A stretch of DNA of 64,000 bases from an uncultured Kocuria sp. Its GTDB lineage: Bacteria > Actinomycetota > Actinomycetes > Actinomycetales > Micrococcaceae. The DNA lies in the NCBI RefSeq assembly GCF_947500125.1, contig NZ_CANMRA010000002.1:150144-214143 (forward strand), in the 5' to 3' direction. Every line of letters starts with the position of its first letter. Positions within the stretch are counted from its first letter, which is position 1. A program made the position numbers and the translations under genes. Positions 3,646-18,450 of the stretch are shown in pieces. The notes below the pieces were generated by a model that was given only the letters and a program-made list of their open reading frames with translations, searched no databases and was not told where the DNA came from.

Positions 3646-4643
3646 GGTACGCCTACCTGGGTCCAGCCGGCACCTTCACCGAGGCCGCGCTGCTGGGCGT
3701 GGAGGGCGCCCGGGAGGCCGAGCGCCGCCCCGTGTCCTCCGTGCCCGTGGCGCTCGCGGCCGTCCGCGCCGGCGAGGTCGACGCCGCCATGGTGCCCATC
3801 GAGAACTCCGTGGAGGGCGGTGTGACCGCCACCCTCGACGCCGTGGCCTCGGGTAGCGAGCTGCGCATCGTCCGTGAGGCGCTAGTGCCCATCAGCTTCG
3901 TGCTCGTCGCCCCGCCCGGCACGGCGCTCGCCGACGTCCGCACCGTCTCCACGCACTCCCACGCCTGGGCCCAGGTGCGGGGCTGGATGGACGAGCGGCT
4001 GCCGGGCGTCGACTACGTCCCGGCGTCCTCCACGGCCGCCGCGGCGCTCGCGCTGCTGCCCGGCGGGCCGGGGCGCGAGGAGCCGGCGCGGGACGTCGGC
4101 TTCGACGCCGCGGTCTGCTCGCCCGTGGTCGTCGAGCAGCACCCCGAGCTCGAGGTGCTGGCGGAGGACATCGGGGACAACAGGGCCGCCGTCACCCGGT
4201 TCGTGCTCGTGGCCCGGCCCGAGGCTCCGCTGCCGCCGCGCACGGGCGCGGACCGGACCACGCTCGTCATCCCGCTGTGGGAGGACCGGGCCGGAGCCCT
4301 GATGGAGATCCTCGAGCAGTTCGCGACCCGGGGGGTCAACCTCTCGCGGATCGAGTCCCGGCCCACGGGCAACTTCCTCGGCGAGTACTTCTTCAGCGTG
4401 GACGTGGACGGGCACATCCTCGACGCACGCGTGGCCGACGCCCTCGAGGGGCTGCGCCGCGTCTGTCCCAGCACGCGCTTCCTGGGCTCCTATCCGCGGG
4501 CCGACCACAAGGTGGCGACCGTCGCCCGGCACCACTCCGACGGGGCCTTCCGCGAGGCGGAGGCCTGGGTCGCCGCCCTGCAGGGGCGCGACCGCCGGGC
4601 CCCGGACGCCCTGTCCGCACCGGGCGCGCCGGGACCCGCGTAA
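3642..4643 (+). CDS. pheA: Prephenate dehydratase
   Basis: YLGPAGTFTE, VPIENSVEG, TRF motif, ACT domain with LSRIESRP; GTG start overlaps the rhodanese stop (GTGA). Confidence 0.95.
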   Translation: MRYAYLGPAGTFTEAALLGVEGAREAERRPVSSVPVALAAVRAGEVDAAMVPIENSVEGGVTATLDAVASGSELRIVREALVPISFVLVAPPGTALADVRTVSTHSHAWAQVRGWMDERLPGVDYVPASSTAAAALALLPGGPGREEPARDVGFDAAVCSPVVVEQHPELEVLAEDIGDNRAAVTRFVLVARPEAPLPPRTGADRTTLVIPLWEDRAGALMEILEQFATRGVNLSRIESRPTGNFLGEYFFSVDVDGHILDARVADALEGLRRVCPSTRFLGSYPRADHKVATVARHHSDGAFREAEAWVAALQGRDRRAPDALSAPGAPGPA

Positions 4644-4786
4644 CGGGAGGACGCGCACCACACCCCGCTTGTTAGCAATTGCGAATACATGCACCATGGG
4701 GAGTGCGGGCGCGTCCGTGCCCGCGATCTTCAGCCGGTGTCGATCGACCCCCCGGGTCGGGACCGAGCCCGACCGGAGGTGCCACC

Positions 4787-13123: not shown

Positions 13124-13786
13124 TCACTCCCAGAACCGCGGTTCGATGTCGACGCCCTGCACGAGGAGCTCGTCCTCCAGGGGCTCCCGGCACACCACCG
13201 GCAGGCGCAGGCAGCCGATCCGGTCGTCGGGGCCGAAGTAGGCCGTGAGCCGGTCGAAGCCCTGCCGGAACGGCGCCAGCTCCTTGGCCGTGGCGGCGAC
13301 CTCCGCCAGGTCGGCGTCGGAGCCGAGCACCCAGAAGGAGTCCGGGTCGGTCAGCTGGAGCAGTCCCACGGGCGCCCCGGCGTCGTTGTTCTCGGTGCCG
13401 GCCCAGCCGGGGGCCCGCAGCCACCCGCCCGGTGCCGCCGCGCCGAGGGCCGGCGCCAGGGGATCGTACTCCCACGCCCGGGCCCGCTGCAGCCACCCCG
13501 GCGGGACCGGGAGGTAGAGGGGGCCGTCGAGGTCCACGGGCCACCGGGCGGCGGCGAACGCCCCGGCGTCCACACGGTCCCAGAACTGCTCCGCGGTGAG
13601 GTCGGTGCCCACGCTGTTGAGCGCCGCCCCGGGGTCCTCCTGCCGCATGCCGTGCCAGTAGGTCGGGCGGGTCGGGACCTCGGCGCGCCGCAGCAGGGCG
13701 TCCAGCTCCTCCAGGTGGGCCGGCTCCCCGAGCACCACCGTCCTGGACTCGAAGTGCAGGACGTAGGGCACGCGCTCGGGGCTCAC
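13124..13786 (-). CDS. Hypothetical protein, translationally coupled to the upstream nuclease-helicase
   Basis: GTG 13786 overlaps upstream TGA (GTGA); globular, Trp-rich sequence with normal codon usage. Confidence 0.75.
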   Translation of the reverse strand: MSPERVPYVLHFESRTVVLGEPAHLEELDALLRRAEVPTRPTYWHGMRQEDPGAALNSVGTDLTAEQFWDRVDAGAFAAARWPVDLDGPLYLPVPPGWLQRARAWEYDPLAPALGAAAPGGWLRAPGWAGTENNDAGAPVGLLQLTDPDSFWVLGSDADLAEVAATAKELAPFRQGFDRLTAYFGPDDRIGCLRLPVVCREPLEDELLVQGVDIEPRFWE

Positions 13787-16700
13787 GGCAGCCCCGCGGA
13801 CCGTCCGCGGCGGCACAGCCGCGTGAAGCGGCCGAGCACCTGCAGCGCCTCCGGGGTGGCGGGCAGATAGTCCGTCAGGGCGGGGGAGCGCACCAGGACG
13901 GCGCACCACTGCCCCCGGGAGACCGCCACGTTGAGCCGGTTGGGCGAGAGCAGGAACTCCATCCCGCGCGGTCCGTCGGCGGCGGAGGCGGCCATCGACA
14001 CGATCACCACGGGGGCCTCCTGGCCCTGGAACCGGTCGACGGTCCCCACGCGGACCCCGCCGCCCTCCTCGTCCCGCAGCCCCGCGGCGGTGAGCTCACG
14101 GCCGATCAGCTCGACCTGGGCGTTGTACGCGGCCACCACGAGCACGTCCTCGGGCCTCAGCGCCGCGGGGGAGGCTCCCGGGCCGGAGCGCCACGGCGTC
14201 CCGACGAACTCGTGGACCAGCTCCACGACGCGCCGTGCCTCCTCGGGCGACGCCGTGCGGTTGCCGGTGTGCTCGACGTGGCAGGTGCGCAGGCCCGGGG
14301 CCACGCCGGTGAGCTCGCGGCGGCCCGCGGCCGGGGCGGACCCGAGCCGCCCGGCGTAGGACAGCTCGGAGACCGGCTCGCACAGGGCCGGGTGCATCCG
14401 CCAGGTGCGGTCCAGGAAGTAGCCGTGCTCGGCGGGCAGCGTGGGCGCCCCGTGGGAGAGCCAGCCCAGCGCCGACTCGTCCACGGGCAGGGGGTGGGTG
14501 CCCTGGGAGACCTGCGGCAGCTGCTGCGGGTCGCCCAGCAGCAGCAGGCGCCGCGCGGCGCGGGACACGGCCAGGGTGTTGGCGAGCGAGTACTGCCCGG
14601 CCTCGTCGACGACGAGCAGGTCCAGGGCCTCGTCCTCGAGGTTCCCGGCGTTGGAGAAGTCCCACGCGGTGCCGCCGACCACGGCGCCGCCGTCCGCGAG
14701 GAACGCGGCGAAGTCCTTCCCCGGCACGTCGCGCCACGGCACCTCCCGGTCCGCGGCCCGGGAGGAGGACGGCTTCTTGCCGACGCGCTCGGGGGCGACC
14801 CCGCCCTTCTCGAGCACCCCGGTGAGGAGGTTTTCGACGACGGCGTGGGACTGCGCCACCACGCCGATCCGCCAGCCGGCCTCCACGAGCCGGCCGATGA
14901 CGTGGGAGCCGAGGAACGTCTTGCCGCTGCCCGGGGGGCCCTGGACGGCGAGGAAGCTGCGGTCGAGGGAGCGCAGGGCCCGGACCACCGCGTCGATCGT
15001 GCCGTCGGGACCCTCGTGCGGGCGGGGCAGGGGGCCGCCGTCCGCCGGCCGCGGCGCCCGTCGCCGGAGCAGCTCGAGGCCGGGCTGCTCGGGCAGTCCC
15101 GGCAGGGTGCCGGCCGTGCGCGCGGCGAGGTCCTGCAGCGATTCCTCGAGGGAGCGCGTGGCGATCGGCCGGGCCGGGCCCAGCGCGATCGGCAGCTCCG
15201 CCCAGGGCTCGGGGGCCGGGCCGTCCCTCGGCTTCTTCAGCCGTTCCCGCACCGTGAGCACCGCCGTGCCGTCCTCGTGCTCCTCGAGGTCCTCGAGCAC
15301 GGCGGTCCAGTCCCCGGCCCGGCCGCTGCCGCGCGGCGCGGCGTCCTCGGCCAGGTGCGCGGGCACGGGGGCCCCGTACATCAGGAACAGCCCGGGAGTG
15401 CCCGGCTTCGGGGTCGAGCCCTCGCCGAAGCGGCCCGCGAGGCGCAGCAGCCTGGTGGGGGCGGCACTGGCGCGCTTGGCCGGGTCCTTCGCCCAGTCCT
15501 CGAGCACCTCGGCGCGCTGGGCCACGAACACGTCGCGGGTGTCCTCCCAGTCCTCGACGGGGCCCTCGAGCCGGTCGAAGTGGGACCACCAGTACTGCTT
15601 GCGCTCGCGCCGGTGGTAGCCGGTGGCGGAGGCGACCATCGCGACGGCCGTGCGCTGCTCCTCCGTCAGGGCGTCCCGGGCCTCCGGGTCCTCCAGGAAC
15701 GCGTGCAGTCGCTGCTCGGCCCCGGTCATCCCGGCGTCCGGCGGCTCCTGCGGCAGCTCGAGCGGATCCTGGACGGGGCGCGGCGGGTGGTCCGCCGGGT
15801 CCGGGGAGATCCCGGCGAGGCCCAGCAGCCAGTCCCGGAGCCGGAGGGTCGAGAGGCAGTCGTACTCGTTGTAGTCGGCGATCCCGGCCAGCAGCCGCTG
15901 CGCGGCGTCCTCCCGCCCGGCCTCCCGGGCCGTGCACCAGTCCGCGTAGGCGACCACCGACGCGCCGGCGTCCACGACGTCGCCGGCGCGCAGGTGCTCG
16001 CCCATGTAGAGCGGCTCCAGCTTCTTGATGGAGTACGAGCTCTCCGACAGCCGCAGGCTTCCCCGCACGGTGTCGTAGAGGTCCACCAGGACGTTCTCGC
16101 GCAGCAGCTCGTCCACGGCGTCCTCGCCCACCGCGTGCACGAGCGAGAGCCGGCGCAGGGCGGCCTTCTCGTAGTTGGCGTAGTGGTACACGTGCATCCC
16201 GGGGAACCGCGCGCGGCGCTCGGCCACGTAGTCGAGGAACGCCCGCAGCGCCTCCCGCTCCTGGGCCCGGGAGTGCGCCCAGAACGGACGGAAGACGGGC
16301 TCGGCGCCGGGTGCGGGGGGCTGCTCGACGACGCCGAAGAGGTACTCGAGCCCCCAGGACGTCGGGTCCTCGGGGTCCTGCCACAGCGGATCGCCCTCGA
16401 AGTCGAAGAACACGTCCCCCGGGTCCGGGGCCGGCAGCCGCCGCACCGGCTCCGTGGCGGTGACCCGGTAGGCGATCCGGCGGGTCCCTCCGTCCTTCGG
16501 GTACTCGACCGCGCCGTCCTCCCCGCCCCGGCCGGTCTGCATCGCCGCCTGGTCGCGCAGCCGCCGCACCGCGGCGGGGAGCCCCCGCTCCGCCAGCACC
16601 GCGAGCTCGTCGACGGTGCGCACCCCGTGCCGGTCGCGCAGCGTGCGGCGCATCCGCACGGACAGCCCCGCCGTCAGCAGCAGGTCCCGGTGCTCGGCGA

Positions 16701-17412
16701 CCGCCCGGGCGCAGTGCTCGCACCGGCCGCACCGGGCGACGTCGTCGTCCTGCCAGTCCACGGGGGCCGTCCGCGCCCGGTGCGCGGCGGCGGCCGCGAC
16801 GAAGCGCTCCCGGCGCTCGCGGTAGACCGCCAGGTGCTCGGAGACGGGGAAGACCGCCTCCCGCTGGTCGCCGAGGACCAGGGTGACCTCGGGCGCCACG
16901 TCCACGCCGGCCCGTTCGAGCTGGTCGGCGTAGGCGGCGAGCTGGAGCAGGGCGGTGACCTTGGCATGCCGGGCGAGCTTGGTGTCGTGCACCGCGTACG
17001 CGCCGTCCGGCCGGCGGACGAGGAAGTCGGCGCGGCCGTGGAAGGCGCCGTCGAAGAAGGAGGCCTGGAAGACGACGTCCGCACCGGCGCGCAGGGCGCC
17101 CAGGGACTCGGCGTGCTTGGCCGTCAGCTCGTCCCGGTCCATCCGCCGGGCCGGCTCGACCTCGTGCACGCCCCGTCCGGTCGTCGCGTCCCAGGGGCCG
17201 AACGCCTCCCGGTGGGCGGCCAGGACCCGGAGCTCGTGGGCGTCGCCCAGCTCGGCCGTGCGGGCGAGCATCGCGTCCCGCTCCGGGGCCCGCCGGGGCG
17301 TCCGGCCCAGCTTCTCGTCCAGGACGCACAGGCTCGCGTAGGGGCACTCGGCCGCGCGCACCAGGTCGCTCGCGGAGAAGACGAGATCCGCCTCGGGGCC
17401 CAGCAGGAACAT
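13783..17412 (-). CDS. TM0106-family RecB-like nuclease fused to RNase H-like exonuclease and SF1 (DNA2/NAM7-type) helicase
   Basis: SASDL..ECP, GRADFLV..DTK..QLAAY (PD-(D/E)XK), CGRCEHC, FFDFEGD..YNEYD, QGPPGSGKT, VVDEAGQ, LLGDPQQLP, TVDRFQGQE, RLNVAVSRG; start ATG 17412 or 17418. Confidence 0.9.
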   Translation of the reverse strand: MFLLGPEADLVFSASDLVRAAECPYASLCVLDEKLGRTPRRAPERDAMLARTAELGDAHELRVLAAHREAFGPWDATTGRGVHEVEPARRMDRDELTAKHAESLGALRAGADVVFQASFFDGAFHGRADFLVRRPDGAYAVHDTKLARHAKVTALLQLAAYADQLERAGVDVAPEVTLVLGDQREAVFPVSEHLAVYRERRERFVAAAAAHRARTAPVDWQDDDVARCGRCEHCARAVAEHRDLLLTAGLSVRMRRTLRDRHGVRTVDELAVLAERGLPAAVRRLRDQAAMQTGRGGEDGAVEYPKDGGTRRIAYRVTATEPVRRLPAPDPGDVFFDFEGDPLWQDPEDPTSWGLEYLFGVVEQPPAPGAEPVFRPFWAHSRAQEREALRAFLDYVAERRARFPGMHVYHYANYEKAALRRLSLVHAVGEDAVDELLRENVLVDLYDTVRGSLRLSESSYSIKKLEPLYMGEHLRAGDVVDAGASVVAYADWCTAREAGREDAAQRLLAGIADYNEYDCLSTLRLRDWLLGLAGISPDPADHPPRPVQDPLELPQEPPDAGMTGAEQRLHAFLEDPEARDALTEEQRTAVAMVASATGYHRRERKQYWWSHFDRLEGPVEDWEDTRDVFVAQRAEVLEDWAKDPAKRASAAPTRLLRLAGRFGEGSTPKPGTPGLFLMYGAPVPAHLAEDAAPRGSGRAGDWTAVLEDLEEHEDGTAVLTVRERLKKPRDGPAPEPWAELPIALGPARPIATRSLEESLQDLAARTAGTLPGLPEQPGLELLRRRAPRPADGGPLPRPHEGPDGTIDAVVRALRSLDRSFLAVQGPPGSGKTFLGSHVIGRLVEAGWRIGVVAQSHAVVENLLTGVLEKGGVAPERVGKKPSSSRAADREVPWRDVPGKDFAAFLADGGAVVGGTAWDFSNAGNLEDEALDLLVVDEAGQYSLANTLAVSRAARRLLLLGDPQQLPQVSQGTHPLPVDESALGWLSHGAPTLPAEHGYFLDRTWRMHPALCEPVSELSYAGRLGSAPAAGRRELTGVAPGLRTCHVEHTGNRTASPEEARRVVELVHEFVGTPWRSGPGASPAALRPEDVLVVAAYNAQVELIGRELTAAGLRDEEGGGVRVGTVDRFQGQEAPVVIVSMAASAADGPRGMEFLLSPNRLNVAVSRGQWCAVLVRSPALTDYLPATPEALQVLGRFTRLCRRGRSAGLP

Positions 17413-17557
17413 GCGCATCCTTCCGACGGCACCGGGTCCGTCCCGGGTCCGGGTCCATCGAACCACAGGGACCGGACGTCACAAGGAGGAGGACGAGGAG
17501 GACGGGCAGGAGGAGGACAAGGAGGGCGAGGGGGCGGGGAGGAACGGGGAGCGGGGA

Positions 17558-17778
17558 TCGGCCGGCAGGTCCGAGGACCTGCCGGCCGACTCCCGGCGGA
17601 CCGGCAACCGGCCCGCCGGGATGGACCGGGAGAGATCGTGGGGATGCGGCGCGGGTGGGGGGACCCCCGCCGCCACCGGGCACCTCGCGGGTGCGCTCCG
17701 GCGACCTCGATCCCGGTCGGCGGCCCGGATGCCGATGGGGGGATGCATCCTGGGGCCGTCGGGCCGGCTGAGCCGGCC
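17558..17778 (-). ncRNA. Candidate structured ncRNA with two C6-loop hairpins (6C-RNA-like), extended
   Basis: Seven hairpins read by eye; CCCCCC loops at 17737-17742 and 17657-17662 on the minus strand; 5' hairpin starts 6 nt after TATATT -10. Confidence 0.6.
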
Positions 17779-17784
17779 GCTCCC

Positions 17785-17790
17785 AATATA
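17785..17790 (-). promoter_or_regulatory. Candidate -10 element TATATT for the structured RNA
   Basis: Within the only strongly AT-rich patch (17785-17812) of this intergenic region. Confidence 0.5.
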
Positions 17791-17870
17791 ACGAAATTCA
17801 TGGATTCTCTGTAGGGCGCCCGTCACGTCGCGTCGCGTTCCTGCACCCCGGCACCCCGGCACCCGCACGC

Positions 17871-17906
17871 GCAGGGGCCGGGGACCGTCCGGTCCCCGGC
17901 CCCTGC
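17871..17906 (-). terminator. 17-bp perfect inverted repeat downstream of ppa
   Basis: GCAGGGGCCGGGGACCG-tc-CGGTCCCCGGCCCCTGC, 16 nt after the ppa stop. Confidence 0.75.
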
Positions 17907-17922
17907 CGTCGCGCCCGTCCGC

Positions 17923-18450
17923 TCAGTCGGTGGACGCGGCCTTCTCCTCGGCCTCGGCGGCCGACTCGTAGTGGGACTGCTCGAAGCGCTCGCGGGCCTC
18001 CTCGACGAGGCGCTCCGCGGTCTCCCGGCCCTCCCAGCCCTCGCCCTTGACCCACTTGTTGGGCTCGAGGTCCTTGTAGCGCTCGAAGAAGTGCTGGATC
18101 TCCTTGAGCTTGAACTCGTCGATGTCGTCCAGGCCCTGGATGTGGTCGTAGCGCTTGTCCGTGGACACGCAGAGGATCTTCGCGTCCCCGCCGGCCTCGT
18201 CGTTCATGTTGAACACGGCGATGGGGCGGGACTCCACGAGCACGCCCGGCACGATCTCGAAGTCCAGGAGCACGAGTGCGTCCAGCGGGTCGCCGTCCTC
18301 GCCCAGGCTGTCCTCGAAGTAGCCGTAGTGGGCGGGGTACTGCATCGACGTGAACAGGACGCGGTCCAGGCGGAGGCGGCCGGTCTCGTGGTCGATCTCG
18401 TACTTGACGCGCGATCCCCGGGGGATCTCGATGGTGACGTCCAACTCCAT
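17923..18450 (-). CDS. ppa: Inorganic pyrophosphatase (family I)
   Basis: IEIPRGSRVKYE, LDRVL, YPAHYG, DGDPLD, GGDAK, FFERYKDLE. Confidence 0.96.
   Translation of the reverse strand: MELDVTIEIPRGSRVKYEIDHETGRLRLDRVLFTSMQYPAHYGYFEDSLGEDGDPLDALVLLDFEIVPGVLVESRPIAVFNMNDEAGGDAKILCVSTDKRYDHIQGLDDIDEFKLKEIQHFFERYKDLEPNKWVKGEGWEGRETAERLVEEARERFEQSHYESAAEAEEKAASTD

Follow-up and report, generated by a model that had tools for sequence, protein, structure and literature searches.

The window, the whole 64-kb stretch of DNA analysed here, belongs to a member of the K. rosea group of Kocuria; the identities of its nuclease-helicase are 95% to Kocuria sp. M4R2S49 and 81–94% to K. arenosa, K. cellulosilytica, K. 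aegyptia, K. oxytropis, K. dechangensis, K. oceani, K. rosea, and K. sabuli. A small RNA (sRNA) gene lies on its minus strand between ppa and the nuclease-helicase gene. Past ppa follows the usual actinobacterial cluster of dacB (S13), Zincin_2, tilS, ftsH, and folE. The features of the intergenic region are listed below, in the order in which the minus strand is read.

17923, minus strand: stop of ppa, inorganic pyrophosphatase (Pfam PF00719)
17871–17906, minus strand: GC-rich hairpin without a U-tract after the ppa stop (GGGGCCGGGGACC...GGTCCCCGGCCCC), kept across the clade; presumably the ppa terminator
17795–17802, minus strand: CATGAATT block in the promoter spacer, at about -24 to -17; seven of eight positions invariant (alignment A1)
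17785–17790, minus strand: -10 hexamer TATATT, invariant in 12 of 12 sequences; mapped 5′ end 7 nt downstream
17618–17778, minus strand: abundant mature sRNA of about 160 nt, from RNA-seq contig depth and an isolated 160-nt contig
17762–17778, minus strand: H1, 7-bp 5′ hairpin from folding; 98.8% of pair cells kept, loop variable
17721–17758, minus strand: H2, hairpin from folding with the 12-nt loop AUCCCCCCAUCG; C6 run at 17737–17742, conserved
17702–17718, minus strand: 5′ strand of P3, a long-range closing helix, pairing with 17624–17638
17676–17701, minus strand: H4, branch inside P3, from folding; stem conserved, loop CGCGA, CGAGA, or CUUGA
17646–17673, minus strand: H5, branch inside P3, from folding; loop exactly CCCCCC (17657–17662)
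17624–17638, minus strand: 3′ strand of P3; mature 3′ end a few nt downstream
17591–17621, minus strand: H6, hairpin with compensatory changes in three pairs
17558–17589, minus strand: H7, hairpin with a perfect 15-bp stem, conserved
17484–17556, minus strand: C/T-rich, G-poor tract that separates H7 from the helicase upstream block
17413–17483, minus strand: 70-nt block (CTTGTGACGTCCGGTCCCTGTGGTTCGATGG...) directly before the helicase ATG
17412, minus strand: ATG of the nuclease-helicase gene (1209 aa; PD-(D/E)XK, RNase_H_2, and SF1 helicase domains)

The TATATT hexamer, H1, H2, H4–H7, and the C/T-rich tract had been listed in a preliminary description of this DNA, and all of them were found on the minus strand. 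That description also contained a local hairpin H3 at 17702–17719, which is actually the 5′ strand of P3, with its partner at 17624–17638. A protein-coding reading of the region was ruled out by frame-breaking indels, GC3, and Pfam: insertions and deletions of one base between species disrupt all reading frames, no ORF with a coding-like GC3 was present in the sRNA region, and neither of the two ORFs overlapping the sRNA had a Pfam match.

The AT-rich promoter block CATGAATTnnGnTATATT occurs once in the window, with 0 occurrences expected, and the CATGAATT block likewise has a single occurrence there. The sixth base of CATGAATT varies between A and T in alignment A1, and the DNA further upstream is unalignable; the block is a possible regulator site or UP-like element. 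A simple pattern scan of the region for sigma-70 promoters and terminators called neither, because the -35 region accompanying TATATT is weak and because the terminal hairpins have no U-tract. In RNA-seq contigs, the depth steps from about 130–670 to more than 10,000 at 17772–17773 (2-nt resolution). A few bases at the very 5′ end are typically lost in RNA-seq, and the isolated RNA contig of run X50 begins at exactly the base in locus L001 that is equivalent to a 5′ end at about 17778. The depth step and the contig start agree with each other and with the earlier proposal of a promoter-led non-coding RNA starting near 17778.

Three runs of one transcriptome study (X35, X36, X52), from a Kocuria closest in sequence to K. 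arenosa, gave contig depths of 1e5–6e5 over 17617–17769 versus 130–240 in ppa and the helicase gene. The sRNA is approximately 1000–4000 times deeper than these flanking genes in public Kocuria RNA-seq, where the RNA evidence consists of assembled contigs, not raw reads, and the depths are approximate. In the unrelated oligo-dT run X50, this isolated 160-nt contig matched exactly L001:2669–2828 (window 17778–17618), starting 7 nt past TATATT and ending 3 nt beyond helix P3. The contigs record no direction, and adapter-bearing contigs were seen in both orientations; the strand call rests on the promoter position and on G-U pairs. Folding energies of the sense and antisense strands are similar, and the minus strand is favoured because two pairs of the P3 domain are mainly G-U and would both read C-A on the opposite strand.

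At the 3′ edge (17607–17625), the bulk of the signal stops at about 17620–17625, and 17607 is reached at about 3% of core depth. In X52, the depth is 2.3e5–2.9e5 over the core, 2331 over H6, 1222 over H7, and about 150 past H7. The two hairpins stand at about 0.5–1% of core depth and fewer than 1% of the sampled molecules include both, although the 3′ end of the sRNA is perhaps under-sampled, as H6 and H7 are very stable and library preparation loses short terminal fragments. Read-through beyond H7 was not detectable in the X52 contig depths. By the depth edges and the X50 contig, the abundant species is about 160 nt long and ends at about 17618, in place of the 220–300-nt transcript that had been proposed. 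H6 and H7, which had been assigned to the functional RNA, lie downstream of this species, and the pyrimidine tail, assigned to it as well, is outside the RNA, its length in closely related species being anything from about 12 to about 220 nt. Tandem, GC-rich, and without a U-tract, H6 and H7 (17558–17621) are probably a terminator or processing module.

In RNA-seq runs X25–X34 and X37–X42, labelled as unrelated organisms or metagenomes, half of the 31-mers of the element were present, at low depth and in contigs that extend over the promoter and H6/H7. Contamination by Kocuria, or community DNA, is the most likely source of this signal, which was not taken as evidence of expression.

For the 161-nt core, the folding energy is -94.5 kcal/mol, with a z of -3.3 relative to dinucleotide shuffles; the 368-nt region has a folding z of -3.4, and H6 plus H7 a z of -8.2. 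The RNAalifold consensus and the single-sequence folds concur on a mature architecture of H1, H2 with its C6 loop, and a three-way domain in which P3 encloses H4 and H5, the latter carrying the second C6 loop. Across 12 sequences, standard pairs occupy 99.7% of the pair cells, versus 32–47% after the partners are shifted by 1–3 columns. The 14 pairs of P3 are paired in 100% of cells and include one A-U to G-C compensatory pair in three sequences, plus G-U/G-C switches. H2 has one compensatory pair, U-A to C-G, also in three sequences, and the stem of H5 changes from G-C to G-U only. These two compensatory pairs in the core, with more in H6, are to be read against a low power to detect covariation, the 12 sequences averaging 94% identity. 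There are 14 C6 runs on the minus strand in 64 kb, which corresponds to about 0.03 expected per 161 nt; here two lie within 80 nt, each in an apical loop. H7 coincides with assembly breaks: contig L007 (1–20) begins within it, and L005 has an N run at about 2868–2877. Its 15-bp GC hairpin appears to break short-read assemblies.

The sRNA gene was found in 11 K. rosea-clade genomes (the window and 10 further species-level genomes) and in one metagenome contig. Over these 12 sequences the promoter and core are alignable, with 86–99% identity to the window, about the same as for the flanking coding DNA; upstream of the promoter, as far as the ppa terminator, the DNA is unalignable. Conservation of the two C6 hairpins in relatives, on which the earlier proposal depended, holds: the C6 loops are unchanged (H5 in 12 of 12 sequences) except for a run of seven Cs in H2 of K. 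rosea, unlike the loops of H1, H4, H6, and H7, which are variable. The sRNA is missing in K. kalidii, of which two strains were compared: M4R5S9 and the one behind the JBISWM assembly, probably M1N1S27. Both keep the helicase gene, the 70-nt upstream block, and a remnant of the H7 3′ arm (CCTGCCGGCCG; L008 2760–3000, L078 3028–3248). This absence is most simply explained by loss, because more distant clade members have the sRNA gene, and it shows that the gene is dispensable.

Downstream of ppa, the sRNA was not found in K. coralli, a Kocuria sp., or metagenome contig L074; the helicase gene and the sRNA are both missing at this place in K. coralli and another Kocuria. A model built from the element (R1) found no sRNA upstream of helicase homologues in other genera outside the clade, and searched against the window and 33 loci it recovered the training sequences only, with no paralogue in the window. 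A mobile element was ruled out by this absence of other copies. A pattern scan of metagenomes, with both loops required at the correct distance, gave just two low-complexity matches, both unrelated, and BLAST gave one chance match against plasmids and zero against phages.

The C/T-rich tract downstream of H7 measures about 12 nt in K. arenosa and about 220 nt in K. cellulosilytica, with L001 (about 40 nt) and the window (about 73 nt) in between. Its appearance is that of low-complexity DNA prone to slippage, and it could conceivably be a Rho-loading (rut-like) spacer. The 70-nt block that follows is in all clade genomes, including those without the sRNA. A motif, CTGTGGTT(C/G)A, is common to this block and to the region before a 233-aa post-ppa gene in K. 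coralli and another Kocuria (upstream regions compared: L072 about 4590–4625, L073 about 4640–4670). The block is probably the helicase gene's own promoter, and it may loosely resemble a PafBC/RecA-NDp DNA-damage promoter.

A comparison of window 13783–17412 with L072/L073 4500–8500 shows that genomes of the K. rosea clade have the nuclease-helicase gene and the sRNA between ppa and a stretch ending with an ABC-transporter gene, and that opuA-type genes are at the same position in K. coralli. The nuclease-helicase gene and the sRNA may have arrived, or been rearranged, jointly. The 10.7–13.8 kb stretch of the window has only long overlapping ORFs, and for the four that were searched Pfam gave no match.

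The 6C RNA of actinobacteria is compact, about half of 160 nt long, with its two C-loop hairpins adjacent. Its Rfam model (RF01066) matched nothing at the gathering score, nothing at E ≤ 10 on 17350–17950 (601 nt), and nothing at E ≤ 1 on the whole window. For 6S there was likewise no match at E ≤ 10, and across Rfam the searches at the gathering score and at permissive E-values yielded only microRNA-like matches on the H7 palindrome, which are due to chance. In 6C, two stem-loops with six-C loops are the target-binding sites, and the C-rich loops of the M. tuberculosis RNA have been shown experimentally to bind targets without a chaperone (PMC6486639). The Kocuria sRNA likewise has two stem-loops with about six conserved loop Cs (H2 AUCCCCCCAUCG, H5 CCCCCC; 12 sequences), and like 6C, known as B11 in mycobacteria and scr3558 in S. 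coelicolor, it is actinobacterial, abundant, and standalone. In contrast to 6C, its C6 hairpins are 69 nt apart, with a P3 strand and H4 intervening, and one of them lies within a three-way junction. Several actinobacterial genera, among them Mycobacterium, Streptomyces, and Corynebacterium, share 6C (PMC6486639), and scr3558 adjoins the Ms1 gene scr3559 in a neighbourhood of a HAD hydrolase and a morphological-differentiation protein (PMC9130861, PMC6486639); the sRNA, by contrast, is flanked by ppa and the helicase gene and is known only from K. rosea-clade loci. The sRNA is not a member of the 6C family, to which it had been likened as an expanded form: it has no Rfam match, differs in architecture, size, context, and taxonomic range, and resembles 6C in one feature, the C6 loops. 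Of 25 verified small RNAs of M. tuberculosis, 9 have C-rich loops or single-stranded stretches (PMC6486639). These other mycobacterial RNAs are alike in general kind, with no relationship to the Kocuria sRNA that Rfam could detect.

Several explanations other than an independent sRNA gene were weighed. Functionless structured intergenic DNA, or a stable fragment left by decay of the ppa 3′ UTR, would fit the position of the RNA just downstream of ppa on the same strand, as well as the resistance of GC-rich hairpins to nucleases. This is very unlikely, since the terminator-like hairpin at 17871–17906 follows the ppa stop, the depth stays at baseline from ppa to 17779 and then rises more than 1000-fold with a sharp 5′ edge 7 nt past the conserved -10 hexamer, and the promoter and loops are conserved whereas the adjacent intergenic DNA is not. 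The RNA also shares the orientation of the helicase gene and lies 200–365 nt before its start codon, as would a cis-acting 5′ leader or attenuator of that gene. Neither transcript continuity nor co-inheritance with the downstream gene was found, however, and we consider a leader extremely unlikely: after H7 the depth is back at baseline, a drop of more than 1000-fold before the helicase gene; the spacer between H7 and that gene can be as short as about 12 nt or as long as about 220 nt; K. kalidii has the helicase gene and its 70-nt block without the sRNA; and helicase homologues of other genera have no such element upstream. Of the two options left by the preliminary description, a standalone sRNA or a helicase leader, the former is supported by its own promoter and delimited ends, and the latter is contradicted by the depth drop and by K. 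kalidii.

The remaining alternatives concern known classes of RNA. That the sRNA is a true but highly diverged or expanded 6C homologue is distinctly improbable; two hairpins with at least six loop Cs each, the feature that names the family, and an abundant RNA in an actinobacterial host argue for it, against the silence of the covariance model in every search, the 69 nt with a helix strand and a hairpin between the C6 hairpins of a 160-nt RNA, neighbours unlike those of 6C and Ms1, and a range limited to a single clade within Kocuria. The main rival, itself unlikely, is that the sRNA is abundant because it binds protein, perhaps as the clade's RNA polymerase (RNAP)-associated RNA in the role of 6S, Ms1, or CoRP; it would then act by sequestration and not by base pairing. 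A depth of about 1000–4000 times that of neighbouring genes is an abundance typical of protein-binding RNAs, a length of 160 nt is near 6S size, and 6S or Ms1 has not been reported for Kocuria; the authors of a RIP-seq study also expect abundant, lineage-specific RNAP-binding RNAs yet to be discovered in Micrococcus-type actinobacteria, and they name Micrococcus luteus as one such case (PMC11077062). One abundant RNAP-binding RNA per species has been proposed, and it may be genus-restricted like CoRP, a 516-nt RNA between tRNA genes (PMC11077062). The Kocuria sRNA is like Ms1, 6S, and CoRP in its very high abundance, structured fold, and non-coding nature, and like CoRP in its narrow taxonomic range. 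Its branched fold, however, has no long rod with a central bubble such as Ms1 and 6S have, the Rfam 6S model gave no match at E ≤ 10, Ms1 synteny is absent, and a whole clade species, K. kalidii, does without the gene. Moreover, the C6 loops are the most conserved unpaired parts, which suggests pairing with nucleic acid.

Ms1 itself, which the preliminary description had named as a candidate to check, was ruled out by synteny and size, as Ms1 is about 300 nt long (about 160 nt here) and adjoins genes for an oxidoreductase and a HAD-IB hydrolase. From Micrococcaceae, the list of Ms1 genera contains only Arthrobacter and Ornithinimicrobium, and Kocuria is not on it (PMC9130861). A broader form of the protein-binding explanation, which we regard as rather improbable, is that the sRNA is the missing abundant RNAP-associated, or global protein-sequestering, RNA of a Micrococcaceae lineage, a new structural class with two C6 loops and of recent origin, present in most K. 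rosea-clade species and lost in K. kalidii. If true, this would support the view that 6S/Ms1-type RNAs are invented anew in each bacterial lineage. The sRNA is in any case a candidate for the abundant RNAP-associated RNA still to be found in Micrococcaceae.

The explanation that we prefer, giving it about an even chance of being right, is an independent sRNA gene of the K. rosea clade that acts in trans through pairing of its C6 loops with G-rich mRNA. The data show that the conserved AT-rich promoter CATGAATTnnGnTATATT stands before the 5′ end at about 17778 and that the RNA accumulates mostly as the 160-nt species with its 3′ end at about 17618. Few transcripts extend to H6 and H7, and essentially none enters the helicase gene. 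The two hairpins most likely terminate transcription and are then removed or under-sampled, and cleavage between P3 and H6 is one possible origin of the mature 3′ end. The folded RNA has a 5′ hairpin and presents AUCCCCCCAUCG on a further hairpin and the second CCCCCC loop on the three-way domain. By analogy with mycobacterial 6C, the invariant C6 loops may pair in trans with G-rich mRNA stretches in 5′ UTRs or ribosome-binding regions, and this pairing may change the translation or stability of the targets. We infer the pairing with G-rich mRNA from the loop sequence only. A brief inspection of the G6 runs in the window, listed as putative targets, revealed no conspicuous one close to a gene start. 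If the pairing mechanism holds, the sRNA would be analogous to 6C in function but built on another scaffold.

No description of a Kocuria small RNA was found in the searchable literature, and the sRNA represents a real, undescribed family as far as Rfam 15 and that literature show. Its general importance is limited by the narrow taxonomic range. It shows that the two-C6-loop design of 6C can occur on an unrelated, larger scaffold; convergence and extreme divergence would each be informative on the evolution of chaperone-independent pairing between C loops and G tracts. The locus also provides an undescribed RNA more than 1000 times deeper than both neighbouring genes, with a well-defined promoter and ends, and K. 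kalidii is a natural null species for comparison. Transcriptomes of K. kalidii M4R5S9, which is without the gene, and of the carrier K. rhizosphaericola M4R2S49 were reported in one study (PMC12343579).
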